From assembly GCA_963796835.1 (NCBI GenBank), contig CAWCND010000009.1, positions 38,859-102,858 of the forward strand: 64,000 nucleotides of DNA, given 5' to 3'. The DNA comes from Candidatus Aminicenantes bacterium. GTDB lineage: Bacteria > Acidobacteriota > Aminicenantia > Aminicenantales > Saccharicenantaceae. Every line of letters starts with the position of its first letter. Position 1 is the stretch's first letter. A program made the position numbers and the translations under genes. The notes under the pieces are model-generated. The model saw only the letters and a list, made by a program, of their open reading frames with translations, was not told the origin of the DNA and ran no database searches. Shown piece by piece: positions 48,157-63,348 of this stretch.

Positions 48157-48188
48157 TTTTCCACAGATGTGGAAAATTCTGTGGAAAA
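48157..48188. promoter_or_regulatory. DnaA-box cluster (TTTTCCACA / TGTGGAAAA x2) in the dnaA promoter region: predicted oriC part 1 and autoregulation site
   Basis: Three 9-mers, each one mismatch from TTATCCACA, two of them as an inverted pair, lie 15-45 nt upstream of the dnaA ATG. Confidence 0.6.
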
Positions 48189-48201: not shown

Positions 48202-49533
48202 ATGGAACCTGAAGAAAAACAAAATCCTTGGATCCAACTCCTGCGGGCCGTCGAGGGGAAGATCGACCCGAACAGCTTCGAGACCTGGTTCGAGCCGACG
48301 AGCTTCATCGGCCAGGACCAGGAGTGCCTGTACATCAAGGTCCCCAATTCTTATTTCCGCGACTGGCTCTCCTTCCACTATTCGAACATCATCAGCGATT
48401 GTTCCAAGGAGCTTTTCAAGAAATCGCTGGAGGTCCGCTACATCTACGACGACACTCCCTCGGCCTTCATGCGGCGCTCACCCGAGGACCGGAAATCGAA
48501 GCAGGGCCTGTCCATCAATCCGAACCTCAACCCGAATTACACCTTCGAGAATTTCGTCGTCGGAAGCTCCAATCAGTTCGCCCACGCCGCCGCCCTGGCC
48601 GTCGCCAAGAACCCCGCCAAGTCCTACAACCCCCTCTACGTCTACGGAGGGGCCGGTCTCGGCAAGACCCACCTCATGAACGCCATCGGCCACTACTCTC
48701 TCGAGCACAACCACCGCCTCAAGATCCTCTACGTGACGACCGAAAAATTCATGAACGACCTCGTCAACCACCTCCAGTATGGAAAGATCCTCGAATTCCG
48801 CGATAAATACCGCAGCGTCGACGTCTTGCTGATGGACGACATCCACTATCTCTCCGGCCGGGAGCGGACGAAGGAAGAGTTTTTCCACACCTTCAACCAC
48901 CTTTATGACAGCCAGAAGCAGATCGTCATCTCGAGCGACTGCGCGCCCAAGGAGATCCCCCACCTCGAGGACCGCTTCCGCTCCCGCTTCGAGTGGGGGC
49001 TGATCGCCGACCTCAAGCCTCCCGACATCGAGACGCGGATCGCCATCCTCCAGAAAAAGGCGGAGGCCGAAGCGGTATCCCTGCCCGAATCCGTGGCCCT
49101 GTACATCGCCGACAAGGTCCAGTCCAATATCCGCGAGCTCGAGGGCTACCTCCGGAGGGTCATCGCCTTCGCCTCCCTTAAAGGCGAGAAGATCGACCTC
49201 GACCTGACGAAGGAAGCCCTGAAAGGCCTTCTAGACGCCTCGACGACGATCATCACTGTGGAAAAGATCCAGAAGCTCATCTGCCACAAGTTCAAGATCA
49301 AGCCCTCCCAGCTCAAGAGCAAGAACAACTCCCCCAAGATCGCCTTCCCCCGTCAGATCGCGATGTACCTGGCCAAGCAGATGACGAAATCCTCACTTCC
49401 GGAAATCGGCAAGAAATTCGGTGGAAAACATCACACCACCGTCATCCATTCCGTCCGGAAGATCGAGAAGCTTCGGGCCGACGATCCCGAATTCAACAAG
49501 GAAATCAACAGTCTCATCGTCTTCATCCAATGA
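48202..49533 (+). CDS. dnaA: Chromosomal replication initiator protein DnaA
   Basis: N-terminal domain, AAA+ Walker A (GGAGLGKTHL), sensor motifs and the C-terminal DNA-binding domain (KIAFPRQIAMYL, HTTVIHSVRKIE). Confidence 0.95.
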   Translation: MEPEEKQNPWIQLLRAVEGKIDPNSFETWFEPTSFIGQDQECLYIKVPNSYFRDWLSFHYSNIISDCSKELFKKSLEVRYIYDDTPSAFMRRSPEDRKSKQGLSINPNLNPNYTFENFVVGSSNQFAHAAALAVAKNPAKSYNPLYVYGGAGLGKTHLMNAIGHYSLEHNHRLKILYVTTEKFMNDLVNHLQYGKILEFRDKYRSVDVLLMDDIHYLSGRERTKEEFFHTFNHLYDSQKQIVISSDCAPKEIPHLEDRFRSRFEWGLIADLKPPDIETRIAILQKKAEAEAVSLPESVALYIADKVQSNIRELEGYLRRVIAFASLKGEKIDLDLTKEALKGLLDASTTIITVEKIQKLICHKFKIKPSQLKSKNNSPKIAFPRQIAMYLAKQMTKSSLPEIGKKFGGKHHTTVIHSVRKIEKLRADDPEFNKEINSLIVFIQ

Positions 49534-49660: not shown

Positions 49661-50762
49661 ATGAAATTCTCAGTCCCGAAAGAGATCTTTCTCGATGAGC
49701 TTCAACTCCTCCAAGGCATCGTCGAAAAGCGGAACACGATGCCGATCCTGGCCAACATCCTGATGAACGTGTCCGAAAAAGAAGTCGACTTAACGGGGAC
49801 GGACCTCGAAGTCGGCTTGAAGACGCACTTCTCCGCGGAGATCGAGAAGCCGGGCGCGATCACGGTCAACGGGAAGAAGATCTTCGAGATCGTCAAGTCG
49901 CTTCCGGAGGGCCAGGCCGTGACGGTCGAGCAGAAGGCCGAAACAATCGAGATCACAGCCGGGGAGAGTGAGTTCAAGGTCTTGTGCATGCAGAAGGAGG
50001 ATTATCCCCAGGTCCCGGAGGCCAAGTTCGAGAAAAAGATCGAGCTCCCCCTCAAAGACGTGAAGGCCATGATCGACCGGGTCTTTTACGCGATCACCCA
50101 GGAGCAGCGGTACTACCTCAACGGCGCGCTCCTGTCGCTCAAGAACAAGCACATGGAGCTCGTGAGCACGGACGGCCACCGGCTGTCGTATACGGCCAAG
50201 GCGGAGGAGCGGGCTCAAGGTCGAAAAAGAGCTCAGCGTCATCGTGGCCAAGAAAACCCTGAGTCGAGCTCCGGAAATTCGAGGACGAGGAGGTCGAGTT
50301 CGACCTCGACGAGAACAACCTCTTCTTCAAGGTCGGAGCTCGGACCCTGATCTCGCGGATCATCGAAAGCAAGTTCCCGAATTACCAGGCGGTCATCCCG
50401 AAGGACAACCCGAACCTCCTGTCCCTATCGACGGGAAGACCTGGCCGGGGCCATCCGCCGGGTCTCCCTGCTCTCGGCCGAGCGGTCGAAGGGGCATCAA
50501 GTTCTACCTCGAGAAGAACCGGATGAAGCTCTTCTCCTCGAACCCGGAGATCGGCGAAGCCAGGGACAGGCTGGATGTCGAGTACAAAGGCCAGGACATC
50601 GAGATCGGCTTCAACTCGCAGTACCTGCTGGACTTCCTGACGGCCGTCACGTCGGAGCGCGTGACGTTCGAGATCAAGGACGAGAACAGCGCCGTCCTCC
50701 TCAAGCCCGAAGGCGAGGAAGAGCTCAAGAATATCTATGTCCTGATGCCGATGAAGATCTGA
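49661..50762 (+). CDS. dnaN: DNA polymerase III beta subunit (sliding clamp); at least four indels between 50200 and 50520
   Basis: The N-terminal domain (49661..50220) and C-terminal domain (50500..50762) are in frame. The middle (LPKFEDEEVEFDLDENNLFFKVGARTLISRIIESKFPNYQAVIPK) is readable only in a third frame. Confidence 0.85.
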
Positions 50763-51270
50763 GCCGCCGGCCGACGAACGCGGCCAGCCAGGCGGCGAGC
50801 CTCTCGACCGCCGCCCGGACTCCGGGGGTCAGGGCCTCGCGGGCTTCAAAAGCCCCCGGTTCTATCCCGAGAACGACGACCCGGCAGCCGGTCGTCTTTT
50901 CCAGGTATGCGGCCAGCGTCGATAGCGGCGTCCTGTGCGTCGAAACGTCCTCGTCCGGGATCGAGGCGGGATCGAGAGCGAAAACCGTCCCCGGGGGATA
51001 TCCCCCGGCGGCCGCGTCGATGACGAGGACGTGGGACGGCCCGAAATCCCTGACCGCTCCCGTGAAATTCTCCGGCGCCTCGTGGGCGATGAAGATCTTC
51101 AGGCGGGGGTTGGCCGACGGCCCGGCGAGCCGGCCCAGCGCCTCGGCGCATAAAACACCGGCGGCGTCATCCCCCCGGGACACGTTCCCCACGCCGAGGA
51201 CAGCCAGCCTCTCCGGCCGGCCGAGCTCCCGCGCCAGCCACGCCTTCCACGCCGCGCGCTTCTTCATCAC
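50725..51270 (-). CDS. hycI: [NiFe] hydrogenase maturation endopeptidase (HycI/HyaD family)
   Basis: VLGVGNVSRGDDAAGV..., the size, and its position after the hydrogenase structural genes. Confidence 0.75.
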   Translation of the reverse strand: MMKKRAAWKAWLARELGRPERLAVLGVGNVSRGDDAAGVLCAEALGRLAGPSANPRLKIFIAHEAPENFTGAVRDFGPSHVLVIDAAAGGYPPGTVFALDPASIPDEDVSTHRTPLSTLAAYLEKTTGCRVVVLGIEPGAFEAREALTPGVRAAVERLAAWLAAFVGRRLRSSSASGHRYS

Positions 51271-51808
51271 CCCTCATTATACATAAAAGAGGACCCGTCC
51301 CGCTTCGTTGCTCTGTCACACTTCCGGAAAATATCTGGATCAAGAGGGACTGTCCCTGAAAGCGGGAAAGCCCCCTTTACCGGTGACGCGGATGCGGGGA
51401 GCGTGAGGCGGAGCGATGATGGATGGAGACGCACACGGAGAGGACGCCTCCGGCGGGACGAGAGCCAAAGGCCGAAGGGGAAGGGCTGGAACGTCATGTG
51501 CGGCTTAGCGCAAGCCGCACTCTGGAGTGAAGGCCATCCCCGAGGCCTTCGGCTGCTCGCTGGGGCAGGACCCCCGACCTTGACATACGAGGGATTGAGG
51601 CGAGCGCAGGCCTTGGGGACGTCCGCCGCCGTCCTGCTCCGGGCAGCCGGCCAGTGCGCCCCCCTCCGGGCCCAAAGCGGTGGCGCCGGGGTCATCCGAA
51701 AGACCCCGTTTGGAGAGGGACCCGGCGGGATTTCCGACGGGGGAACCGGGACAGGTTCCCGGGGCCGGGGGATAAGGGTGACCCGGGTGCCACCCCAATT
51801 GAGTGTGC

Positions 51809-52244
51809 TTAAGCCTTGGGGGCGGCCTCGGGAGCGGTGCCCGGCTTCGGAACGGCCGCCTTGGGCTTGATGACGGCCCGGGCGTAGACCCATGCCTTCT
51901 TCAGGTTGTGCCGGTCGAAATCGGCGATCTCGAAGAGGCTGTCCATGTCCATGGCCTTCGGGGTCGTCGGGCAGGAATCCACGCACTGGGCACAGTGGAT
52001 GCAGCGGTCGTTGTGGATGACCATCCGGAACGTCTTCTCGGCCTCGTTGACCGACGTGATCTCGATGGCCTCGGCCGGGCAGTCGCGCTCGCAGGCCCGG
52101 CAGACGATGCACATGTCCGGGTGGAGGAACGGGGTGCCCCGGAAGTCCTTCGGGCACTTCGAGCTTCTTGAAGGGGTAATCGACGGTCGCCGGTTTTTTG
52201 AAGAGACTGCGGAGGAGTTCGGGGAGGAAGGCCGCGATTTTCAT
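51809..52244 (-). CDS. NuoI-like 2x[4Fe-4S] ferredoxin subunit of the membrane hydrogenase (frameshifted)
   Basis: CIVCRACERDCP and CIHCAQCVDSCP cluster motifs. The N-terminus MKIAAFLPELLRSLFKKPATVDYPF lies in another frame. Confidence 0.75.
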
Positions 52245-52261
52245 TGCAGGAATCCCTTCAG

Positions 52262-53218
52262 GAGGATGACGATCAGGAGCTGAAGCACGGCCAGCGGGGC
52301 CAGGTATTTCCAGGCCACGGTGACGACCTGGTCGACCCGGATCCGGGAGGTCAGGGCCCGGAGGAGCGACCAGGAGGAAGATGATGAAGAGGGTCTTGAT
52401 CGACGAAATGCAGGAACCCGATGACCGCTCCGCCAGGAAACCCGCCCAGGAAGACGGCGGCCAGGAGGCCGCTCGCGACGACGAGCTCGATGTCGATCAT
52501 CAGCCGGAAGAAGGCCAGCTTCTTGCCCGAGTACTCGGTGAACGTCCCGCCGACGATCTCGGTCTCGGCGTGGGGGATGTCGAAGGGCGTCCGCTCCAGC
52601 TTGGCCTGGACGGCGATGACGGCGACGACGAAGCCGAGGAGGTTCGGCAGGATGAGGAGCGGCTTGTTCTGGTAGAAGGCGGCGATCTCGGCCAGGCGCC
52701 AGGAGTTGGCCAGGATGGCCGGGCTGAGGACGGACAGGAAGAGCGGCACCTCATAGCCGAAGAGCATGGTCAGGACGCGGGAGCCGCCGATCGTCGAGAA
52801 GGGGTTGGTCGAGGACCAGGCGGCCAGGAAAAGGATCAGGGTCGGCAGGCTCAGGAGGTAGAGGATGACGATGATGTCGCCCGGAGAACGACGTCATGCC
52901 GGGCGCGGCCAGGTCGAAGTTCCAGACCGGGAGCAGCAGCGCCGGCCGTGGACACGACGGCCAGGCCGAAGACCGGCAGGAGCGATGAACAGCCGCCTTG
53001 TCGGCGGCCTCGGGCACGATGTCCTCCTTGGCCAGGAGCTTGACGAAGTCGGCGATGGGCTGGAGGAGGCCGAAGCGGCCGGTGTGGGTCGGGCCCATCC
53101 GGTTCTGGAGCCGGGCGTAGACCTTCCGGTCGAACCACTCGCAGAACGTGGAGTAGACGAAAAGGAAGAGGAGCCCGGGATAGACGAGGAGATAGAGGAG
53201 TGTTCTCAGAACGGCCAT
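52262..53218 (-). CDS. NuoH-like membrane subunit (HycD/EchB/MbhM family), frameshifted
   Basis: [35 protein letters not shown] is the NuoH signature. Confidence 0.75.
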
Positions 53219-54411
53219 ACCGCATTCCTTTTCAGGGGGGGCGTTTTATGGTGCTCGATCGCCCGCCGGCGAAGGTCGCTCAAGCGGACGGTCGTCTCTT
53301 CGCCGCTCCGGGCGTTGACCAGGCTCACGGTCCGCTCCGCGCAGCAGATGCAGGGGTCGATGGCGGCGAAGATCAGGGGGATGTCGGCGATGAACCCGTG
53401 GCGGAGCATCTCCACCGTGGCCGGGTAGTTGGCCAGCGTCGGGGCCCGGACCTTGAGCCGCTCGGGCTTGTCGGTGCCGTTGCTCTTGATGTAGTGCATG
53501 TTCTCCCCGCGGGGGGCCTCGTAGCGGCTGACGACCTCGTTCGGGCTTGGCCTTCCGGGGCGCCTTGACGGCGATGTCGCCGGCGGGCAGGTTCTGGAGG
53601 ATCTACTCGATGATCTTGTAGGATTCGAGGAGCTCCTTGACGCGGACGACGACCCGGCCCGAGGACGTCGCAGGTGTCGGCCGTGCCGACCTCGAAGTGC
53701 ATCTCGTCGTAGACGGCGTAAGGGTCTTCCTTGCGGACGTCCCGGGTGATGCCCGAGGCCCGGGCCGTGGGGCCGACGGCGCAGAGGCTCGACGGCCTGC
53801 TCTTTGGTCAGGGGGCCGACGCCGGCGATCCGGCCGACGAAGCTCGGCTCGTTGGCGCCGATGTGGAAATAGTATTCGCTCCGCTTCCTGAGGACCACGA
53901 CGCCTTCGAGGATCTTGGCCTTCTGGCCCTCGTCGATGTCGCGGCGGACGCCGCCGAGGGTGTTGATGGCGTAGTGGACGCGGTTGCCGGAGATGAGCTC
54001 CAGGAGGTCCATGACGATCTCGCGGTCCCGCCAGGTGTACATGAAAAAGGAGTCGAAACCGGCCTCGTGGCCGGCGACGCCGAGCCAGAGGAGGTGGCTA
54101 TGGACGCGCTCGAGCTCGGAGACGAGGTAGCGGATGTACAGGCCCCGCTTGGGCGGAACGATCTCCATGAGCTTCTCCACGCCCTGGACGAAACAGGTGG
54201 CGTGGGAGTGGGAGCAGATGCCGCAGATCCGCTCGGTCAGGTAGATGTTCTGGATCCAGGTCTTTTCCTCGGCCAGCTTCTCCAGGCCGCGGTGGTTGTA
54301 GCCCAGGCGGATGTCGGCGTCCTGGATGACCTCGCCCTCGACGGTCATCCGCAGGCTGATGGGCTCCTTGAGGGCCGGGTGCTGGGGGCCGATGGGGATT
54401 TGGAACTTCAT
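53206..54411 (-). CDS. [NiFe] hydrogenase large subunit, group 4 (NuoD-like), with both Ni-binding motifs
   Basis: L1 motif [11 protein letters not shown]2 motif DPCICCAER, and a ~40 aa C-terminal extension (substrate for HycI). Confidence 0.85.
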
Positions 54412-54419
54412 GACTTGCC

Positions 54420-54882
54420 TCCGGGGATGATCTCCGGCGGCCGCTCGAACTTCCAGTCCTTGCGCAGAGGGAAGTTCCCGGCCGGCCAGTCGTCCGGCAT
54501 GACGAGGGGGCGGGGGTCCGGGAGGCGGTCGACGACGAGGCCGAACATGTCCTGGAGCTCCCGCTCGTAAAGGATGGCCCCGGGGATGACGGCGCGTGAT
54601 GCTGTCGATATGGGGAGAGGCCTTGGGGATCTCGGTCCGGACGTTGATGTTGGCCGCCGGGCTGGCGAAGTGGTAGAGGATCTCGAACGCTTCGCCCTTG
54701 TCCAGGCCGCTGATCGTGGCCAGGTAGGCGCAGTCGTACTTGTCGCGGAGGAGGGTCACGGCCGCGACGAGGTCGCCGGGGCCGACCTTGAGGAAGATGC
54801 GCCGGCGGTCGGGGTTCGTGACCTCCAGGGCTTCGGCGCCCAGGTCCCGCTTGAGCCTTTCGATGATCTCAGCATCGGTCAT
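54420..54882 (-). CDS. NuoC-like (30 kDa) subunit, possibly fused in frame to the large subunit (HycE-like)
   Basis: Complex1_30kDa-like N-terminus (MTDAEIIERLKRDLG..., DCAYLATISGLD). No stop codon before the [12 protein letters not shown] start of the large subunit in this assembly. Confidence 0.55.
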
Positions 54883-54898
54883 GGCGTGTCCTCGAAAC

Positions 54899-55318
54899 CT
54901 AGAGTTTTCCCAGGAGCTTGACGACGCCGTCCAGGATGGCGTCCGGCCGGGCCGGGCAGCCCGGAACGTAGACGTTCACCGGGATGACCTGATCGATCCC
55001 TCCCATGATATTGTACGCCCCGCGGTAGACGCAGCCGGACATGGCGCAGGCCCCGACGGCGATGACGAACTTGGGGTCCGGGACCTGGTCGTAGATCCGG
55101 ATGATCCGGTCCTTGATCTGCCGGGTGACCGGGCCGCTGGCGACGATGACGTCGGCGTGGCGCGGCGTCGCCTTGAGGAGGACGCCGAAGCGCTCGACGT
55201 CGAAGCGGGGCGTCAGGGCGGCGACGATCTCGATATCGCAGGCGTTGCAGGCGCCCGAGTTGAGGTGGAGGATCCATGGCGACTTGATCCTCGACCACCG
55301 GACCAGCTTGTTCAGCAT
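54899..55318 (-). CDS. NuoB-like hydrogenase small subunit (20 kDa, [4Fe-4S] N2-type)
   Basis: SGACNACDIE, GACAMSGCVY and PGCPARP cysteine motifs. Confidence 0.85.
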   Translation of the reverse strand: MLNKLVRWSRIKSPWILHLNSGACNACDIEIVAALTPRFDVERFGVLLKATPRHADVIVASGPVTRQIKDRIIRIYDQVPDPKFVIAVGACAMSGCVYRGAYNIMGGIDQVIPVNVYVPGCPARPDAILDGVVKLLGKL

Positions 55319-55379
55319 GTTAGCTCCTTGTGATGAGGGCCATGATGGACAGGAATATCATCAGGAGGTAGAAGATCGG

Positions 55380-55653
55380 CGAAGAAGATGATCTTGCCCG
55401 AAGGAACCGTGGCGATGACCAGGGTCGCAACGTGCATGATCGTGAAGAACAGGGCGACGAAGAAGAACAGCCGGTAGCCGAACTGGATCTTGACGCCCGG
55501 GATGTCCTCGCCGCAGGCGTAGGTCGCGAGCTTGCCGCCGACCTTGGTCAGCTTGGGGGCCATCTTCGAGCCCAAGCCGTAGAGGAGAAAGGCCGCTCCG
55601 AGGAAGAGGAGAAAGGCGACCGGCGGGGAGAGGAGAAGTTCGATTCCCTTCAT
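55380..55653 (-). CDS. NuoA-like small membrane subunit (C-terminus disturbed)
   Basis: YACGEDIPG resembles NuoA Y-E-C-G-F. Sits immediately upstream of nuoB-like. Confidence 0.4.
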
Positions 55654-55656
55654 GGC

Positions 55657-55965
55657 TTACCCTTTCAGTTTGGCCAGCTTCCGGACGTCCAGGCTCTTCG
55701 TGTGCCGGTAAATATTGATGATGATGGCCAGGGCCGTGGCGACGAGGCTGACCTCGATGACGATGAAGGTGACGACCAGGGCCTGGGCGACCAGGATGTT
55801 CCCCTTGGCGAAGCCGGTGGCGAGAAGGAGGAGGCTCACGCCCTTGCTGACGACCTCGATCGCGATGAAGAGCCGGATCAGATTCCGCTTGGAGAGGAGG
55901 GCGTAGAGCCCGGCGAAGACCAGGCCGGCCGAGAAGAACAGGTAGAGGTACCAGGTGTTAGTCAT
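55657..55965 (-). CDS. NuoK-like (MnhC-like) membrane subunit
   Basis: NLIRLFIAIEVVSKGVSLLL...VIEVSLVATALAII matches NuoK. Confidence 0.7.
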   Translation of the reverse strand: MTNTWYLYLFFSAGLVFAGLYALLSKRNLIRLFIAIEVVSKGVSLLLLATGFAKGNILVAQALVVTFIVIEVSLVATALAIIINIYRHTKSLDVRKLAKLKG

Positions 55966-56440
55966 GTTTGTCTCTCTTCCGGAACAGGGCCAGGACGGAG
56001 AAGACACCCGCCAGGATGACGGCGATCTGGCCGACGAGGTCCAGGGTCCTCCCTTTCCAGAGGACCTCTCCGAACGTGCCCGTTTCGGGTCCCGAGGGCA
56101 GGGCCGGGATCTTCTGGAGAAGGCCCTTCATGACCAGGGCATCGATGATGACGAAGATGACGAAGAAGAGCGGGAAGATGACGTTCGCGAGGCGCGATTC
56201 CCGGACCTCCTCGCCCGTGTTCGTCAGGGCGATGGTCAGGATGAACAGGACCGTGATCAGGCCCGCGACGACGGAGATCTCAAAGACGCCCGCGTAGGAG
56301 GCGCCCATCCGGAAGAAGATGATCCCCAGGAGAAGGCTGGCCACGGCCAGGGAGATCGCCGCCCGGATCAGGTCCTTGAGAAAGATCGCCAGGACCGAGA
56401 AGAGTACCATGCCGATGAGGAGCGCTGTTTGGACAATCAT
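55958..56440 (-). CDS. NuoJ-like membrane subunit
   Basis: AISLAVASLLLGIIFFRMGASYAGVFEISVVAGLITVLFIL aligns with E. coli NuoJ ALLYLIISLLAISGVFFSLGAYFAGALEIIVYAGAIMVLFVF. Confidence 0.65.
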   Translation of the reverse strand: MIVQTALLIGMVLFSVLAIFLKDLIRAAISLAVASLLLGIIFFRMGASYAGVFEISVVAGLITVLFILTIALTNTGEEVRESRLANVIFPLFFVIFVIIDALVMKGLLQKIPALPSGPETGTFGEVLWKGRTLDLVGQIAVILAGVFSVLALFRKRDKHD

Positions 56441-56443
56441 CTT

Positions 56444-57926
56444 CTATAATCCCCACGAACGGATCACGGCCTGGACCCCCTCCGCCAGCACGCCGGCGGC
56501 GGGCTGGATCCAGGATTTGATGGTCACCGAGAAGAAGATGCCGATCCCGACGCAAAGGGAGGCCAGCAAGACGGTCGAGGCGGTCATCCAGAAGGGCGCC
56601 TCCTTCACGGCGGCCCATCTCTCGTTGAGCTTTCCGAAGAAGGCCTTGCGCTGGATGAGGAGGTAATACCAGAGGGTCAGGACCGAGGCCAGTACGGCGA
56701 TCAAGGCGAAGACGGGGTGCCCCGCCTGGATGAGGGCCATGATGATGAGGAGCTTGGACCAGAAGCCGTTGAGGGGCGGGACGCCGGCGATCGACAGGGA
56801 GCCGATGAGGTTCGTGGCCGCGGTGAAAGGCATCCGCTTGGCCAGGCCGCCCATCTCGTCGAGGTTGCGGGTGCCGGTGGCCTGCTGGATGGAGCCGGAG
56901 GTCAAGAACAGGAGCCCCTTGGCCAGGGCGTGGTTGAACAGGTGGAAGAGCCCGCCGGCGATGCCGAGCGGCGTCCCGAGGCCGATCCCCAGGACGATGT
57001 AGCCGACCTGGCTGATCGAGGAATAGGCCAGCATCCGCTTGATGTCTTTCTGGCCCAGGGCCAGGAAGGCGGCGACGACCAGGGATACGGTGCCGAGGGT
57101 CATCAGGACACTGGACAGGGCCGGCGTCAGGCCGAAGACGTTGAGGAAGACCCGGGTCAGGGCGTAGACGCCCGAGACCTTGATCAGCAGGCCCGACAGG
57201 ACGGCCGAGATCGGGGCCGGGGCCGAGGGGTGGGCGTCCGGCAGCCAGGCGTGGAAGGGGACGAGGGCCGCCTTCAGCCCGAAGCCCATGATGAAGAGGG
57301 CCGCGCAGATGCCGACGACCGGGCCGGCGTTGAGGTCTTGGAGGGCCCTGGCCACGGCCGGCGAAGCTCAGGCTGCCGGTCATGCCGAAGATGACGGCGA
57401 TGCTGACCAGGATGAAGGCCGAGGCCACGACGGACAGCAGGAGGTACTTGAAGGCCGCCTCGAGCTCGTCCTGCCCGAGGCCGAAGGCCACCAGGGCGTA
57501 GGAGGCGACGGCGGCCACCTCGAGAAAGACGTAGATGTTGAAAAGGTCCGTGGCCAGGACGAGGCCGTTCATCCCGGCGATCATGATCAGGAGCAGGGCG
57601 TAATAATTCGCCTTGGCCCCGTAGTGCTCCATGTAGTCGATCGAGAACAGGCTGACGCAAAGCCCGACCAGGGAGATGGCCATGAGCATGAGCAGGCTGA
57701 ACCCGTCGAGGGCCAGGCGGAGGTTGACGGTCTCCCCGAGCCAGGTCAGCTTCTGGAGGGCGGGTCCGTTCCCGATGAGCGGCCGGCCGACGGCCACGGC
57801 GTAGACGAGCAAGAAGAGAAGGGCCGCGTTGGCCAGCAGGTCCGGCACGACCCTCCGGGAGACCTTGCCGACGAGCGGCAGGACTCCCGCCACGATGAGC
57901 GGCAGGGCAACGAAGAGAATGATCAA
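56444..57926 (-). CDS. NuoM/N-like antiporter subunit (Proton_antipo_M family), one frameshift
   Basis: ORF 56444..57355 (C-terminal) plus the N-terminal part of ORF 56280..57926. Confidence 0.8.
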
Positions 57927-57979
57927 CGCTCCTCCTCGATCTTCACAAACTCTTCCGAACGATCTATGGAATCAATCGG

Positions 57980-59854
57980 CTATTTCGTGAGCATGGAGAT
58001 GACCCCGGCCACGATGATGAGGCCGGCCAGGCACCAGGCCAGGTAATTCGCGTAGTGCCCGTTGTGGGCCTTCTTCAGGATCCCGGTGAACTTCCCGCCC
58101 ACGGCCGTGACGGCCTTCTCGAAGACGAAGTCGATGGGCCGGTCGACCGCCTTGAACAGGACCATGGACAGCCCCCGGAGGAACTTCACGCCCTGCTCGT
58201 AGAGGTCGAACACCCGCGCTTCGGCCAGATCGTAGAGCTTATGGAGGACCGGGCAGGTTGTGGACCGGCTCGGAGGCCAGGTAGGGCTTGCGCCCCGACT
58301 TCCGGAAGCCGTAGGCGTGGAGGAGGAAGGCTAGGACCAGGCAGGCCAGGGAGATGAGGGCGATGGGGTTGACGAGGGCCAGGGCGTGGGCCGTGAAGTC
58401 GACAGGCTCGCCCGCCTCGACGTGGCCCGCCAGGATCGGCTGGATGAACAGGGTCAGGGGCAGCTTGTTGAAGACGCCGAAGATGATGCAGAGCAGGGCC
58501 AGGATCGAGGATCGGGATAACGACGGGCGCCTGGCTTTCCTTGACCGGCCGGGACCTCCTTCGTCCGTTCGCCGAAGAAGACCGAGTGGCCGGCCTTGAG
58601 GAACGAGGCGAAGGTGAAGATCGCCCCGACCCAGGCGGCGATGGCGAAGACGATGTAGCCGGTCTCGATCGCGCCGTGGAAGACCATCTCCTTGGAGACG
58701 AACCCGTTGAGCGGCCAGACGCCCGAGATGGCCAGGGCGCAGACGGAGAAGCCGAACGCGGTCAAGGGCATCTCCTTGCCAGAGCCGCCGAGCTTCTTGA
58801 GCTCGGTCGTCCCGGTCCGGTGCTCGACCGAGCCGGCGCTCAGGAAGAGCCCGCACTTGTACATGGCGTGGTTGATCATGTGGAAGAGGCCGCCGGCGAT
58901 GCCGATGGGGATGCCCGTGCCGATGCCCAGGACCATGTAGCCGACCTGGCTGATGGCGTGGAAGGACAGCAGCTTCTTGAAGTCCTTCTGGATGAGGGCC
59001 ATGAACACGGCCAGGACGATGGTCACCGCGCCGATGGTCATCATCAGGATCGACAGGCCGCTGCCCGGCTCGATCTTGAAGAAATCGAGGGTGATGCCGG
59101 GCCAGCAGGTAGATGCCCAGGAGCTTTTCGAAGGCGGCCGGCAGGAAGGCCATGAAGGTCACGGGCGCGTCGAGGGCGGCGTCGGGGATCCAGGTGTGGA
59201 AGGGCATGGCGCCGGCCTTGCCGATGGCGCCGATCATCATCAGGACGAAGGCCGCCGCGGCCAGGCCCGTCGGGCTCGACCGAGATCTCGGACATCGTCA
59301 GCGTGCCGGACAGCGACCAGAGGAGGCCGATGCCCAGGATCATGCAGAAATCGCAGAAGCCGCTGATCAGGAGGGCCTTGACCGCGGTCCGGCTCGACGT
59401 CGGCTTGCCGCCGATGGTGATCAGGCCGTACAGGGTCACGAGCAGCCCTTCCCAGAAGAAGAGGAGGGGCACGAAATTGTTGGCCAGGACCGCGCCGTTG
59501 GCGAAGGCGGCCGTCAGGAAAACGTAGGCGTAATATTCCCGGACCCGCGGGGCGTCCTTCATCTTGACCGTCGAATAGAGCGTGATCAGGACGAGGAACC
59601 CGCGACAGGGCGAGCAGGATGAAGCTCGAAAAGTGGAACAGGCGAAGCTCGAAATCGATCCCCATTCCGAGCCAGGGGACGCTCAGCTCGAGGTTCTTCA
59701 CCGAGAAGAAGACGAACGCGTAATAGAGGAGGGCTGCGGACCCGGCGACGGCCAGCAGTTCGCGGAGGAGCCTGACCCCCTTGGGGATGAGGAGAAGGAC
59801 GACGGCGAGGACCGCGGGCAGAAGGACCGGCAGAAGGAGCATTTTGGGCGTCAT
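57980..59854 (-). CDS. NuoL-like antiporter subunit including the C-terminal long helix and last TM (frameshifted)
   Basis: The N-terminal fragment runs in ORFs 59240..59866 and 59044..59562, the core in 58454..59044. The separate 77 aa ORF 57980..58213 matches the NuoL C-terminal helix and TM16. Confidence 0.7.
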
Positions 59855-61282
59855 CGGAGCCACCAACTCATCTGGGCCGTCGCAACGCTGACGAGTTTCA
59901 TGGGAAACGAGACGAGAAGGCCGGCCGCCAGGCTGAGGACGGCCAGGGTCGCGACGACAAAGACCATGGATTTCGTTTTTTCAGGGGCCGGATGCTTGGC
60001 CTCACCCAGGAAAACCAGGCTGAAGACCTTCAGCAGGTAGAACATCGTCAGGACGGCGGTGAACAGGGCCGTCCCGGCCAGCCAGACCTGGCCCGCTTGA
60101 AGGGTGCCCATGATCACCAGGAACTTGGAGAAGAACCCGCCGAAGGGCGGGATGCCGATGACGGAGAACGCGCAGAAAAGAAAAGCGACCGCGGTGACGG
60201 GCATGGTCCGGATGAGGCCGCCCATCTCCCGGATGTCCTTGGTGTGGGTCGCGTGGATGACGATCCCGGCGCAGAGGAAGAGGCCGGCCTTGGCCAGGCC
60301 GTGCATCAGGATGAAGAGCAGGGACCCGGAGATGCCGGCCGCGTTGGCCATGCTGAAGCCCGAGGAAGATGTAGCCGATCTGGCTGACCGTCGAGTAGGC
60401 CAGGATCCGTTTGAAGTCGTTCTCGACGGCGGCCGCGCCCGCGGCGACCAGGCTGGAGACGACCACGACGATGGGGATGATCTGCTGCCATTCGGCCGGG
60501 ATCCTGAAGCCGTAGAGGAAGAGCCGGGCGTAGGCGTAGACGCCGATCTTGACGAGGACGGCGGCGTGGAGGAGGGCCGTGACGGTCGTCGGCGCGACGC
60601 CGGCGTCTGGCAGCCACGTATGCAGGGGCACCGTGGCGGATTTCGAGAACAGGCCAAAGAGGATCAGCAGGACCGCGCTTCCGGGGATGAGGGTCCCCCG
60701 CATGGCGGTGATGTCGAAGGTTTTCGTGACGCCGTAGATCTGGATGAACCCCAGGAGCATGACCACGGCGCCGAAGAAAGTCACGAGGAAGGCCTTGTCC
60801 GCTTTGATGACGAAGTCCCGCTGGCGGTAGAACCCGATCAGGCGCCAGCAGCTGATGGCGATGATCTCCCAGAACAGGTACAGGAAGATGAGGTTGCCGG
60901 AGAAGACGAGCCCCATCATGGCGCCGATGAACAGGAGGACCATCAGGTAGTATTCGTTCTGGTGCTCCTCGTGGTGGATGTAGCCGATGGAATAGACGAC
61001 GATCAGGCAGCCGACGAACGATGAGACGCAGGCCATGAAGATCGACAGGGGGTCGAGGATGAGGATGACGTCGAGCCCGAGGACGAAGGGCTTGCGGACG
61101 ACCAGATCCCCACCGCCGAGGGCGAACGGGATCAAGGTCAGGGGCAAGACCGCCGTCGCGGCGCTCACCAGGATGGCCCACAGCGACCGGGCGGGCTTGG
61201 AGACGAGGGCCGCCAGCGGGACCGCGAATGAGCCGACGATGGGGACGAGAATCGTGAGGAGGGCGATGGTTTCGACGTTCAT
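59851..61282 (-). CDS. NuoN/M-like antiporter subunit (frameshifted)
   Basis: ORF 60002..61282 (N-terminal) and ORF 59851..60657 (C-terminal) both carry Proton_antipo_M blocks. Confidence 0.8.
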
Positions 61283-61465
61283 GGTGACGATGCCGTTCCT
61301 TATTTTGAGGGGGTAGTATATGGGCGCCCTCGGGAATTGTCAAGAATTTCCACACGTCGTCCTCATCTCTTGCACAGGATTTCCAGAGCAAAATAATATT
61401 TGATTTTTCACCAGGAATCCTGGAATATAGGGAAAAGACGCCGCTTGGAGAGAAAGGGAGAAACC

Positions 61466-62591
61466 ATGGCCATCGAAGTCAAGGAAATCCGATCCCGGAA
61501 GGACCTCAAGACCTTCATTTACCTTCCCGAAAAGATCCACGCCGGGCACGCGAACTGGGTCCATCCCATCTACATGGACGACTGGAAATACTTCGACCCG
61601 AAAAAGAACAAGGCTTTCGGCTACTGCGACACAATCATGCTCCTGGCGTTCAAGGATGGCGCCTGCGTCGGCCGGTGCATGGGGATCATCAATCGCCCGA
61701 TACAACGAACACCGGAACGAAAAGACGGCCCGCTTCGGATACCTGGAAACGTACGAGGACCAGGAAGTCGTCCACGTCCTCCTGGCCAGGATCGAGGACT
61801 GGGCCAGGGCCAAGGGGATGACCCGGATCGTCGGCCCGTACGGCTTCTCGGACCAGGACCCCGAGGGGTTCCTCGTCGAGGGCTTCGACCACCGGGCGAC
61901 CATCGCCACCTACTACAATTTCCCCTGGATGCCCAAGCTCGTCGAGAACGAGGGCTACGTCAAGGACATCGATTATTTCGTTTACAAGATCGACATCCCT
62001 AAGGAGATGCCCGAGTTCTACAAGAAGATCTATGAGCGGGCCGAGAAGAAGGGGGACTTCGAGGTCCTGGAGTTCAAGTCGAAGAAGCAGATCAAGCCCT
62101 GGATCCGGCCGGTCCTGTCGTTGATGAACGAAACCTACATGCAGAACAATATCTACGGCTACGCGCCGCTCGATGAGAAAGAGATGGACGAGCTGGCCAA
62201 GCGCTATCTGCCCGTCCTCAACCCCCACTTCGTCAAGGCCATCACGAAGGATGGCGAGATCGTGGCCTTCATCATCGGCATGCCCGACATGAGCGGGGGG
62301 ATCCAGAAGGCCCGCGGCCGGCTCTTCCCGTTCGGTTTCATCTATATCCTGCGGGCGGCCAAGAAAACGAAACAGCTCGACCTCCTCCTCGGGGCGGTCA
62401 AGGACAAGTACCGGGGCCAGGGCCTGGACGTCGTGATGGGGGTCAAGATGATCCAGTCCGCCCTGGACGCGGGCTACGAGATCATGGACACCCACCACGA
62501 GATGGAGACCAACGTCAAGGTCCGGGGCGAGATGGAGCGGATGGGCGGAAAGATCTATAAGAAATTCCGCGTCCTCCAGAAGGCACTCTAG
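61466..62591 (+). CDS. Tandem GNAT-fold acyltransferase-like protein of unknown function (one frameshift near 61690)
   Basis: Two halves each with GNAT-like beta-alpha topology. The second half carries YRGQGLDVVMG (motif A-like). RBS AGGGAG. Confidence 0.45.
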
Positions 62592-62851
62592 GAAGCGAGG
62601 GCCCGTCCCTGAGAGCGGGCCAGCCCCTCTTGATCCAGATAGTTCCCAGAAGTGCGGCTCCGAGATGCTCCGCCACACTTCTGATGGTCGTTCCTCGGAA
62701 TCCGCTCCCTGCCGGTCCTGCCCGTGTGCGTTCCTGTCAGGCCTTCGGGGATGGCCTCCACTCCAGAGCGCGGTTCTTCACGCCTCCCCGAACCCTTCTT
62801 TCTCGGTGTCTGCGGAACTCGCTCAGCACTCCCTGACCCGCCCCGAATCTT

Positions 62852-62882
62852 AAAAAACGGGTTTCCTTTCTCCCGTTTTTTT
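62852..62882. terminator. Bidirectional rho-independent terminator (AAAAAACGGG...CCCGTTTTTTT)
   Basis: An A-run precedes and a T-run follows the hairpin, in the convergent intergenic region. Confidence 0.55.
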
Positions 62883-63348
62883 CCGAGCCTCCGCACTCTG
62901 TTGAATTTTGCTCAGACATCCTCGCCGCCCTCATGGGAGGGAATACCCAAGAGAGGTTTCCTCCCATGAGGATTCCCTCGAAAAACGGTTCGGAGAGGCT
63001 AAACCGCGCATGACGTTCCGGCCAATCCCCGAAAGCCCTCTTTAGCAGGGCACCGGCGGTCGGTCCCGTCGGTCGAACCCTCCAGAATTGTTGTCAAAAG
63101 GAATAGCCGGACGCAGGGGGGATGTCCCGGAGAAAACATTGAGCGCGACGCGGGCACGGTCCCTCGCCCCTTGGGCGAGGGGAGCGGAGCGATCACAGAG
63201 TGGGATTCCTCGCTGGGGAATCCCACGTTTTTCGGAGGGACTCTCCCCGAGTCCGCGACCTCGAGAAGGGAGGCCATTTCCCGAGGCCCTGAGATGGGAC
63301 ATGCCGGGACAGGACCCGTCCGGCCTTTTCGCCATCTGATAGGCCGGC

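Follow-up and report, generated by a model that had tools for sequence, protein, structure and literature searches.

A conserved complex-I-like operon in an Aminicenantes bacterium probably encodes an energy-converting group 4 [NiFe] hydrogenase with its own HycI-type protease

The cluster of complex-I-like genes beside dnaN in this Aminicenantes genome raises the question of whether it encodes a working energy-converting hydrogenase and, if so, of which kind. In the 64,000-nucleotide stretch of DNA that we analyzed (the window), twelve genes, comprising eleven complex-I-like subunits and a HycI protease, occupy positions 50725-61282 on the minus strand; every gene named in the original prediction was found there, at its expected coordinates and on that strand. 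The operon is real, but it is conserved among Aminicenantes bacteria and had been reported from them before. We consider it probable that the eleven subunits make up a functional, energy-converting [NiFe] hydrogenase of group 4 and that the locus supplies its own HycI-type maturation protease. Most likely, this enzyme would couple ferredoxin-driven H2 evolution, possibly reversibly, to proton translocation. Because several genes are interrupted in the window, some protein lengths below are taken from L001, a relative with 94.5% nucleotide identity in which every gene is intact.

The NuoD-like [NiFe] large subunit (54411-53206; 400 aa in L001) contains an EAPRGE motif and both Ni-Fe motifs, [10 protein letters not shown] and DPCICCAER, with all four cysteines; it carries [19 protein letters not shown] together with a 41-aa C-terminal extension. 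This 41-residue tail after DPCICCAER aligns with the cleaved C-terminal extension of HycE. The PDB matches of the large subunit were MbhL (279 bits, 40% identity), HycE (260 bits, 37% identity) and Nqo4 (207 bits), and its identity to NuoD was 29%. In the NuoB-like hydrogenase small subunit (55318-54899; 139 aa; Pfam Oxidored_q6), whose best PDB match was MbhJ (167 bits), the alignment places the four cysteines opposite those of HycG and HyfI; the first two form a CxxC, in contrast to the adjacent CC in NuoB. The NuoC-like gene (54882-54408) encodes 157 aa in L001, and the NuoI-like 2x[4Fe-4S] subunit (52244-51809; about 140 aa in L001) carries two CxxCxxCxxxCP motifs for ferredoxin-type clusters. 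The HycI-type maturation endopeptidase (51270-50725; 181 aa in the window; Pfam HycI) scored above the TIGR00072 cut-off, with HycI as its best specific model, and keeps the Asp/Asp/His set, as its GDD, IDA and STH stretches align with the matching stretches of E. coli HycI. The Ni-Fe cysteines, the CxxC, the HycE-like extension and the HycI protease thus bear out the prediction of a genuine group 4 [NiFe] hydrogenase rather than an Ehr or NDH-1 complex.

We assigned the subunits of the membrane arm, like the others, from Pfam, NCBIfam or PDB matches. Antiporter-like subunit 1 (61282-59851; 476 aa in L001; Pfam Proton_antipo_M and Proton_antipo_N) keeps E139, K214, H327, K331 and K386; subunit 2 (59866-57980; 626 aa in L001) keeps E139, K216, K247, H328, H332, K336 and K391; and subunit 3 (57926-56444; 493 aa in L001), which exceeded the TIGR01972 NuoM cut-off (271 versus 263.8 bits), keeps E136, K218, K249, H328, H332, K336 and K391. 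When aligned with E. coli NuoL, NuoM and NuoN, all three retain the TM5 glutamate, the TM7 lysine, the central lysine or histidine and the TM12 lysine. Subunit 2 is of the NuoL type, with a lateral helix and a terminal TM helix: NCBIfam NuoL models cover it end to end (residues 8-623 against 3-611 of 615), and its TM15-TM16 linker spans 82 residues compared with 74 in E. coli NuoL. These two results agree with the predicted presence of the NuoL long helix on one antiporter-like subunit. An AlphaFold2 model of this tail, of low confidence, places helices at 2-35, 39-61 and 67-88. According to a review, the length of the lateral helix tracks how many antiporter-like subunits are present (PMC8165549).

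The smaller membrane subunits also resemble those of complex I. The NuoJ-like protein (56440-55958; 160 aa) matched Pfam Oxidored_q3 with 42 bits (cut-off 33.2) and MbhD weakly; its PDB matches were MbhD, MbsD and NuoJ, and its FEISVV stretch aligned opposite LEIIVY of E. coli NuoJ. The NuoK-like protein (55965-55657; 102 aa; Pfam Oxidored_q2, E = 1.3e-18) keeps a glutamate at the position of the NuoK TM2 glutamate in the alignment and has a second one in the next TM helix, two alignment columns away from the NuoK TM3 glutamate. For the NuoA-like protein (55653-55320; 110 aa in L001), the single-sequence Pfam match fell below the cut-off. A profile built from nine orthologues matched solely NuoA, ND3 and NdhC in the PDB, over the full length and with a best E of 2.7e-4; in its loop motif, Y-[AG]-[CS]-G-E, the Tyr, Gly and Glu are invariant in the nine orthologues. 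Counting against our preferred explanation, His and Ala stand where E. coli NuoA has the TM2 Asp-x-Glu. The NuoH-like membrane subunit (53218-52241; 323 aa in L001) matched Nqo8 (165 bits) and E. coli NuoH (151 bits) ahead of MbhM (94 bits), MbsM (74 bits) and HycD (69 bits). Homologues of all eleven complex I core subunits other than NuoE, NuoF and NuoG are therefore present, as had been predicted, with the NuoA assignment requiring the profile search. The complex is indeed richer than Ech or Hyc, as described, but three antiporter-like subunits also occur in E. coli Hyf.

The arrangement of these genes had been regarded as peculiar, and here the original prediction did not hold. We compared the 80 best-matching genome loci, whose titles are nearly all Aminicenantes or Acidobacteria MAGs. 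The identical eleven-gene order occurred in 65 of them, and the same layout was found on two metagenome contigs whose large subunits are 60-62% identical, so the order is not non-canonical. Placing the membrane genes first also agrees with the subunit lettering of the solved Mbh complex (PDB 6cfw chains D to N). Similarly, adjacency to dnaN (49661-50762, plus strand, outside the complex), whose 3′ end overlaps that of the convergent hycI by 38 bp, reflects conserved synteny, as a convergent dnaN was present in 47 of the 65 loci with the eleven-gene order. In about a third of the relatives HycI is absent from the operon, which counts against the preferred explanation. Between the nuoI-like gene and hycI lies a non-coding spacer of 538 nt (51808-51271, minus strand), longer than the same spacer in relatives. 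It holds fragments of a dispersed repeat that BLAST also matched to window positions 62617-63030 and to a further seven related loci; its RNA fold z-score was -3.0, and an Rfam search of the spacer gave no match. A promoter-like site, TTGACA-17-TATACT (61315-61343, minus strand), lies 33 nt upstream of antiporter-like gene 1 and was the sole sigma-70-like match in 50400-61800 (11 of 12 positions); because about 1.3 chance matches are expected, it is suggestive by position alone.

On the basis of these sequence features, we propose a putative mechanism. Ferredoxin reduced by other metabolic reactions would hand electrons to the NuoI-like subunit with its two [4Fe-4S] clusters; from there they would travel via the one cluster in the NuoB-like subunit and reach the NuoD-like subunit, at whose Ni-Fe site protons would be reduced to H2. 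This chemistry may be coupled through the NuoH/A/J/K-like interface to the three antiporter-like subunits, held together by the NuoL-type lateral helix, so that protons cross the membrane. The large subunit precursor would receive its metals and then be cut by HycI after the Arg of DPCICCAER, losing about 41 C-terminal residues. We infer ferredoxin as the donor and H+ as the ion, as well as the direction and stoichiometry of the reaction. A precedent is Ech2 of Thermoanaerobacter kivui, which was shown in purified form to carry out H+ pumping driven by ferredoxin (PMC9356269). In a Pfam scan, the frame-corrected translations of the whole window yielded neither hyp genes nor genes for formate dehydrogenase, CODH, PFOR or ferredoxin, which upholds the earlier statement on fdh, CODH and hyp. 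The absence of hyp genes and of a ferredoxin-reducing enzyme from the window counts against the preferred explanation, whereas ferredoxin as the donor is favored by the absence of HycB/HyfA, FdhF, CooF/S and NuoEFG electron-input subunits from the operon and window.

Electron transfer from ferredoxin to H+ yields just about 36-86 mV under standard conditions (PMC9356269); because this ill fits four complex-I-style proton paths, the stoichiometry or direction may differ from simple H2 evolution. We regard it as possible, although unlikely, that the same enzyme runs in reverse, oxidizing H2 while the proton-motive force drives ferredoxin reduction. The small voltage available for H2 evolution and the four putative proton paths speak for this, and H2-dependent ferredoxin reduction by Ech has been reported in some methanogens and acetogens (PMC9356269); moreover, an acetogenic heterotrophic lifestyle has been proposed for some Aminicenantes MAGs (PMC6472368). 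With its three antiporter-like modules the enzyme would reach a high H+/2e- ratio and could therefore run at low H2. However, the sequence holds nothing that fixes direction, and published studies of MAGs have led to the inference that Aminicenantes evolve H2 by fermentation (PMC5459899, PMC10766756).

The nature of the translocated ion can be weighed similarly. The antiporter-like subunits score about equally against MrpD/MrpA and NuoL, and relatives from other phyla were described as Mrp-linked (PMC8542988); hence, the membrane arm might move Na+ or exchange Na+ for H+, as does the Mrp module of Mbh, rather than move only H+. We find this improbable, as no Mrp small-subunit (MbhA-C-type) match was obtained, all eleven structural genes are complex I core homologues, and purified T. 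kivui Ech2 pumps H+ but not Na+ (PMC9356269).

More doubtful still is the view that the enzyme acts, as Hyf or Coo does, as a hydrogenlyase coupled to formate or CO, with a dehydrogenase partner encoded at another site in the genome. Three antiporter-like subunits accompanied by a NuoK-like subunit are found in Hyf, the C-terminal extension and protease are HycE/HycI-like, and the group 4 enzyme of Aminicenantes has been called a formate hydrogenlyase complex in one paper (PMC5459899). However, neither a HycB/HyfA-type connecting ferredoxin subunit nor FdhF or CooS/F was found in the window, and none of these was seen among the called genes that flank the operon on the five metagenome contigs examined. 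Additionally, NuoC and NuoD are separate genes here, whereas they are fused in HycE and HyfG, and the identity to HycE is a mere 37%.

The original prediction overlooked pervasive frameshifts. Only the NuoJ-, NuoK- and NuoB-like genes and hycI are intact ORFs in the window; the other eight of the twelve are broken by single-base indels, of which comparison with L001 shows 27 insertions and 7 deletions. Insertions and deletions number 8 and 2 in the NuoL-type gene, 6 and 3 in the NuoD-like gene and 8 and 2 in the NuoH-like gene, and one insertion each is present in antiporter-like gene 1 (corrected protein 97.1% identical to L001), antiporter-like gene 3, the NuoA-like gene (close to its 3′ end), the NuoI-like gene and the NuoC-like gene. 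The last of these inserted bases joins the NuoC-like gene in frame to the NuoD-like gene, creating an apparent 558-aa fusion ORF; in relatives the two genes are separate with a 4-nt overlap. We interpret the frameshifts as consensus errors of the assembly and not as pseudogenes or gene decay, because dnaN (four single-base insertions), dnaB and rplI are broken likewise, the breaks are patchy over the window (the stretch from 8 to 28 kb has no candidates), relatives (L001, L010 and L063) carry an intact operon, and dN/dS against L001 is 0.15, indicating purifying selection. The same scan of nine related loci gave 0-1 candidates per 20 kb, and the corrected proteins are 87-99% identical to those of L001 (ten of twelve at 93-99%). 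The sheer number of indels in eight of twelve genes might suggest a pseudogene cluster decaying in the source genome through real frameshifts, but this is very hard to credit given the breaks in dnaN, dnaB and rplI, their patchy spread over the whole window rather than at this locus alone, the low dN/dS, and the comparably fragmented protein copies on other long ENA contigs.

Among known systems, no characterized enzyme has the subunit set of the Aminicenantes hydrogenase, the closest large subunits being MbhL and HycE. Mbh of Pyrococcus furiosus (HydDB group 4d, PDB 6CFW) gave the best solved-structure matches for both catalytic subunits and, among the matched chains, likewise has no extra electron-input subunit; its 6cfw chain letters put the membrane subunits first and follow the same relative order, with D corresponding to the NuoJ-like subunit, H to the antiporter-like subunits and then J, L and M to the NuoB-, NuoD- and NuoH-like subunits. 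In contrast, homologues of the Mrp small subunits (sodium module) were not found in the Aminicenantes operon, which has three antiporter-like subunits; the MBH lateral helix, according to a review, spans one proton path only (PMC8165549). The long lateral segment of the Aminicenantes complex sits on the NuoL-type subunit. MbhD (96 aa) matches just the N-terminal half of the single 160-aa NuoJ-like protein, and the NuoH-like subunit is much nearer complex I than MbhM. E. coli Hyf (hydrogenase 4, FHL-2) shares the three antiporter-like subunits and the NuoK-like subunit, and Hyf and Hyc (hydrogenase 3, FHL-1, PDB 7Z0S), both of HydDB group 4a, share the homologous large-subunit extension and HycI-type protease. 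Unlike them, the Aminicenantes operon lacks HyfA/HycB and formate dehydrogenase, has unfused NuoC and NuoD and includes NuoA and NuoJ homologues; the large subunits are 36-37% identical, and the NuoH-like subunit is far from HycD/HyfC (69-87 bits).

Complex I has one homologue here for each of A, B, C, D, H, I, J, K, L, M and N, the residues aligned with the E. coli NuoL/M/N channel residues are kept, the lateral-helix linker is no shorter than that of E. coli NuoL, and the NuoH- and NuoA-like subunits match complex I above any PDB hydrogenase. However, the large subunit keeps Ni-Fe cysteines at the place where quinone is bound in complex I, the small subunit has CxxC instead of CC, the large subunit carries a protease-dependent extension, the gene order is permuted, and neither the NuoD nor the NuoH equivalog cut-off was reached. 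The biochemical model for the probable activity of the Aminicenantes enzyme is T. kivui Ech2, a ferredoxin:H+ oxidoreductase that pumps H+ when purified (PMC9356269). It belongs to HydDB group 4g, a loosely defined, polyphyletic group to which hydrogenases from MAGs of Omnitrophota and Cloacimonadota have been assigned (PMC5037454, PMC13582414, PMC8542988). Ech2 has eight subunits and Ech (group 4e) six, and NuoA, NuoJ and NuoK homologues or three antiporter-like subunits have been reported for neither. Finally, Ehr and Mbs/Mbx are also multi-subunit complexes with antiporter-like subunits, and among solved structures the NuoL-type subunit matched MbsH′ (PDB 6u8y_X, 618 aa). The Ni-Fe ligands are described as missing from Ehr complexes (PMC6349859), and the Mbs complex of known structure acts as a sulfane sulfur reductase rather than as a hydrogenase (PMC7684303), whereas the Aminicenantes enzyme has the full set of four cysteines along with the extension and the protease.

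By its defining features, the operon (window 50725-61282, minus strand) is supported as encoding a group 4 [NiFe] hydrogenase, with predicted activity and ion coupling. ORF listing and Pfam scans of the 50-62 kb region revealed, on the minus strand, fragments of three Proton_antipo_M proteins, a NuoJ-like (Oxidored_q3), a NuoK-like (Oxidored_q2), a NuoA-like (weak Oxidored_q4) and a NuoB-like (Oxidored_q6) protein, one 558-aa ORF matching Complex1_30kDa, NiFeSe_Hases and Complex1_49kDa, two NADHdh fragments, a 2x[4Fe-4S] fragment and the HycI protease. Both metal motifs were present, and the gene inventory and coordinates of the original prediction proved right. A point that it overlooked is that the window copy is evidently an error-laden assembly. 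Most operon genes are not intact ORFs in the window: the reading frame that gives a good protein sequence shifts every few hundred bases, and dnaN, adjoining the operon at 49661-50762 (plus strand), shows the same frame jumps.

To find relatives, a 208-aa stretch of the large subunit was searched against species-representative genomes. The best 80 loci, nearly all from MAGs titled Aminicenantes or Acidobacteria, were 80-97% identical over this piece. The closest of them (L001) shares 94.5% DNA identity with the window over 10.8 kb, and the alignment contains 39 one-base gaps, 30 of which are extra bases in the window; homopolymers are not the sole sites. All twelve genes are intact in L001 and in a second relative (L063), and the eleven structural genes are intact in a third (L010), which lacks hycI. 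Once the indels were removed, the window proteins were 87-99% identical to those of L001 (ten of twelve at 93-99%), with an overall dN/dS of 0.15 between the two copies, indicating purifying selection. A codon-usage Viterbi scan detected about 50 frameshift candidates across the window versus 0-1 per 20 kb in nine related loci. These candidates are patchy, with none in 8-28 kb and many in 0-4, 28-32 and 48-64 kb, a pattern suggesting that a long-read assembly was polished or covered unevenly. The frame switches are mostly single-base insertions without a stop codon, and the broken genes include dnaN, dnaB, rplI, ispD/F and M16 peptidases. Other assemblies are affected likewise: on several long ENA contigs the large subunit is present only in pieces.

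We considered and rejected a pseudogene cluster, as the relatives are intact, correction restores conserved proteins under purifying selection, and the breaks are window-wide and affect essential genes too. Because dnaN, dnaB and rplI are broken in the same way, decay confined to the operon is very unlikely, and the frameshifts in the window are most probably assembly errors. The apparent NuoC-NuoD fusion in the 558-aa ORF is likewise an artefact; intact relatives carry two separate genes with a 4-nt overlap. For annotation, the lesson is that such an error-rich window would turn a real, conserved operon into apparent pseudogenes or fragments.

The corrected operon begins with three antiporter-like genes (476, 626 and 493 aa), followed by NuoJ-like (160 aa), NuoK-like (102 aa), NuoA-like (110 aa), NuoB-like (139 aa), NuoC-like (157 aa), large-subunit (400 aa), NuoH-like (323 aa) and NuoI-like (about 140 aa) genes, and then by a 538-nt spacer and HycI (181 aa). 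A promoter-like TTGACA-17-TATACT lies 33 nt 5′ of the first gene. At the other end, hycI (minus strand) and dnaN (plus strand) share 38 bp at their 3′ ends (window 50725-50762).

The catalytic module has the features of a hydrogenase. Both Ni-Fe-binding CxxC motifs of the large subunit (RxCGxCxxxH-type at the N-terminus and DPCICCAER at the C-terminus) align with HycE, HyfG and MbhL, and EAPRGE aligns, together with both metal motifs, with HycE and HyfG. The C-terminal extension of 41 aa aligned to the 32-aa extension of HycE, from which cleavage after R359 is predicted. HycI scored above the TIGR00072 cut-off, and its GDD, IDA and STH align with the matching stretches of E. coli HycI, so that Asp/Asp/His are kept. 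With both an extension and an endopeptidase encoded, the large subunit would mature in a HycI-dependent manner, as in E. coli HycE. The small subunit retains four cysteines for a single [4Fe-4S] cluster, including a hydrogenase-type CxxC where NuoB has an adjacent CC, and the NuoI-like subunit carries two CxxCxxCxxxCP motifs. The subunits expected of group 4, namely NuoB-, NuoI-, NuoC- and NuoH-like proteins and at least one antiporter-like membrane subunit, are all encoded. Of the 65 loci with a conserved eleven-gene order, 24 lack hycI in the operon. In L010, a locus without hycI, the large subunit nevertheless has 400 aa, and dnaN directly follows the nuoI-like gene.

The original prediction of a complex-I-like membrane arm was also supported. 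The seven membrane subunits of complex I (A, H, J, K, L, M and N) all have counterparts, NuoA by a profile match at E = 2.7e-4. All three antiporter-like proteins retain the residues aligned to the E. coli NuoL/NuoM/NuoN channel: the TM5 Glu, the TM7 Lys, the central Lys/His and the TM12 Lys. The 626-aa protein aligned end to end with NuoL models, and the gap between its last two hydrophobic helices spans 82 residues, versus 74 in E. coli NuoL, 96 in HyfB and 58 in HycC, consistent with a NuoL-type lateral helix. According to a review, the length of this helix scales with the count of antiporter-like subunits spanned (PMC8165549). In a low-confidence AF2 model (pLDDT 63), which offers weak support, the NuoL-type tail is helical and ends in a terminal TM helix. 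For the NuoA-like protein, single-sequence searches gave a Pfam E value of 0.0047, a PDB E value of 1.6 and no NCBIfam match, and the profile, built from nine sequences, matched only NuoA, ND3 and NdhC chains in the PDB. A His and an Ala of this protein (window 55320-55653) align to the TM2 Asp-x-Glu of E. coli NuoA (FDVE). The TM2 His and a loop motif, Y-x-x-G-E, are invariant among nine orthologues from both operon types.

The eleven structural genes were all found in 67 of the 80 loci, with the same order and orientation in 65, and 12 of the remaining 13 lacked genes only at one or both operon ends; most of these 12 are short loci, possibly cut by contig ends. The other departure, L076 (CAIWXX010000119.1), is full length. 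It encodes HycI along with NuoB-, NuoC-, NuoD- and NuoI-like proteins, but the NuoH-like gene and all six membrane genes upstream are missing, which points either to a reduced variant or to a misassembly. Among the 65 order-conserved loci, hycI comes next in 41 and a convergent dnaN is present in 47. The same order with HycI also occurs on two metagenome contigs (L082 and L086) with large-subunit identities of 60-62%; a SpoIIP gene near the operon suggests that one of the two contigs may come from a spore former. At 57% identity, a two-antiporter variant with the order J-K-ant-ant-A-B-C-D-H-I is found on three other contigs (L081, 4380-12498; L087, 3556-12081; L088, 2845-11568). The large subunits of L081 and L088 have 363 aa, close to what the window protein would measure without its 41-residue extension, and neither operon is followed by a HycI gene. 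In L087, the large subunit is in fragments and a HycI gene follows. The original prediction had called the gene order non-canonical and the dnaN adjacency unusual; given the counts across related loci, both are lineage-wide synteny, and the complex-I-shaped hydrogenase is a core, origin-proximal feature of the Aminicenantes relatives sampled. Earlier studies have described group 4 hydrogenases in Aminicenantes bins (PMC5459899, PMC10766756). The claims that the operon is unusual are not supported.

The window is an origin-proximal housekeeping block containing mnmE/G, parAB, rnpA-yidC-jag, dnaB, dnaA-dnaN and polA. Near the dnaA start, a stretch of 32 nt (48157-48188) holds three TTTTCCACA DnaA-box-like sites, and the lowest GC content of the window, 0.55, is found around this cluster, which indicates that the window spans the chromosomal origin region. 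More DnaA-box-like sites occur towards dnaN at 48881, 49257 and 49557, and the window holds 15 in total versus 3.4 expected. GC skew over the operon was rejected as evidence of replication direction, since the coding composition of membrane proteins could yield the same skew. Within the window, no hyp, fdh, CODH, PFOR, rnf or ferredoxin genes were found, in agreement with the original prediction for hyp, formate dehydrogenase and CODH.

Two neighboring elements deserve mention. The spacer between the nuoI-like gene and hycI (window 51271-51808) is about 540 nt long versus 80-260 nt in relatives. Stretches of 33-38 nt recur in the intergenic region 5′ of polA (62617-62654, 62739-62773 and 62998-63030), and longer ones of 65-119 nt match unrelated sites in seven related loci (L009, L056, L042, L070, L053, L043 and L074). 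The spacer element thus looks like a dispersed intergenic repeat. Its predicted fold is moderately more stable than shuffles (z = -3.0); an Rfam search of the spacer returned no family, and nothing clear emerged as repeat structure inside it. Upstream of the operon, a divergent gene (61462-62580, plus strand) encodes a protein of about 374 aa and is syntenic with the operon in 55 of the 80 loci. Searches with this protein gave no PDB entry and, apart from weak similarity to GNAT (E = 0.017), no Pfam or NCBIfam family, and its single-sequence AF2 model was unusable (pLDDT 33).

After the precedents of Mbh and Ech, ferredoxin-driven H2 evolution coupled to proton translocation is the simplest reading of the enzyme. 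Ferredoxin would donate electrons to the clusters of the NuoI-like subunit, the electrons would pass via the small-subunit cluster to the Ni-Fe site, where H2 would be evolved, and protons would be translocated through the complex-I-like arm. The purified Ech2 of T. kivui, a group 4g enzyme of eight subunits, evolves H2 from ferredoxin with H+ translocation, and the driving force is only 36-86 mV (PMC9356269). Under standard conditions, this span is too small for all four complex-I-style proton paths to pump per electron pair, and we infer that the enzyme may operate at very low H2, with a low stoichiometry or in the reverse direction. The last option, in which the proton motive force would drive H2-dependent ferredoxin reduction, would fit the same shortfall. 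The searches returned no Mrp small-subunit match, which makes sodium rather than proton coupling less likely. A formate or CO partner could be encoded elsewhere, but nothing points to one, and the window contains no HycB/HyfA, Fdh or CODH gene.

The family could be an extant [NiFe]-retaining lineage that already owned a complete complex-I-type membrane arm, a reading that we put forward tentatively and consider rather improbable. Three antiporter-like subunits held together by a lateral segment of the length seen in NuoL, an unsplit NuoJ, and NuoH-like and NuoA-like subunits closer to complex I than to Mbh or FHL would all fit it. If the family were a true sister of complex I, a full proton-pumping arm would have been built on a hydrogenase before the loss of Ni-Fe and the gain of quinone reduction, and the enzyme would offer a sharp bioenergetic test of how four proton paths run on less than about 100 mV of driving force. 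Nothing known is overturned, and the evolutionary interest of the architecture, which is biochemically uncharacterised, is moderate. The operon would make a sensible target for studying the origin of complex I from hydrogenases and the amount of ion pumping that the small energy span from ferredoxin to H2 can sustain. To our knowledge, no member of this eleven-gene architecture has been purified or solved.

In comparison with known systems, the operon looks like a mosaic, with a hydrogenase-like catalytic pair and a complex-I-like membrane interface. In PDB searches, the large subunit matched MbhL (279 bits, 40% identity), HycE (260 bits, 37%) and Nqo4 (207 bits) but no Ech or Coo chain, and it is 29% identical to E. 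coli NuoD. The small subunit matched MbhJ (167 bits), NdhK (132) and HycG (126). The NuoH-like subunit, in contrast, matched Nqo8 (165 bits) and E. coli NuoH (151) ahead of MbhM (94), MbsM (74) and HycD (69). None of the NCBIfam equivalog cut-offs for NuoD, NuoH and NuoL was reached (NF004739, 329 versus 360 for NuoD; NF004741, 263 versus 305 for NuoH). Large-subunit identity to named references is at most 40% (MbhL, group 4d) and 37% (HycE, group 4a), and large subunits 57-60% identical bear three differing source names (EchE, MbhL and NuoD). Membrane-bound group 4 enzymes of Elusimicrobia, Saganbacteria, Omnitrophota and Cloacimonadota are usually labeled "Mbh-Mrp type" or group 4g, the latter being loosely clustered, polyphyletic and of undetermined function (PMC5037454, PMC13582414). 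Our literature search for a Saccharicenans genome and the explicit 11-gene architecture found only general statements on group 4 enzymes in Aminicenantes and, for other candidate phyla, enzymes of the "Mbh-Mrp type".

The Mrp-Mbh type (group 4d), represented by P. furiosus Mbh, has Mrp small subunits as a sodium module and a single antiporter-like subunit, whereas our operon encodes three, with no Mrp small-subunit gene in the operon or the window. The Ech type (group 4e) has six subunits, compared with eleven structural genes here, including NuoA-, J- and K-like genes besides the antiporter-like ones. Formate hydrogenlyase (group 4a, Hyc/Hyf) combines a fused NuoCD with HycB/HyfA and formate dehydrogenase; here, NuoC-like and NuoD-like genes are separate in intact relatives, and neither HycB/HyfA nor Fdh is encoded within the window. 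Unlike Ehr/Mbs, in which the NuoD-like subunit has lost the Ni-Fe cysteines, the enzyme keeps all four. Respiratory complex I/NDH-1, with its quinone site, differs from it in the retained Ni-Fe cysteines, the small-subunit CxxC and the scores below the equivalog cut-offs. The Ni-Fe cysteines, the CxxC, the C-terminal extension and HycI together bear out the original prediction that the operon would encode a genuine energy-converting hydrogenase rather than an Ehr or NDH-1 complex.
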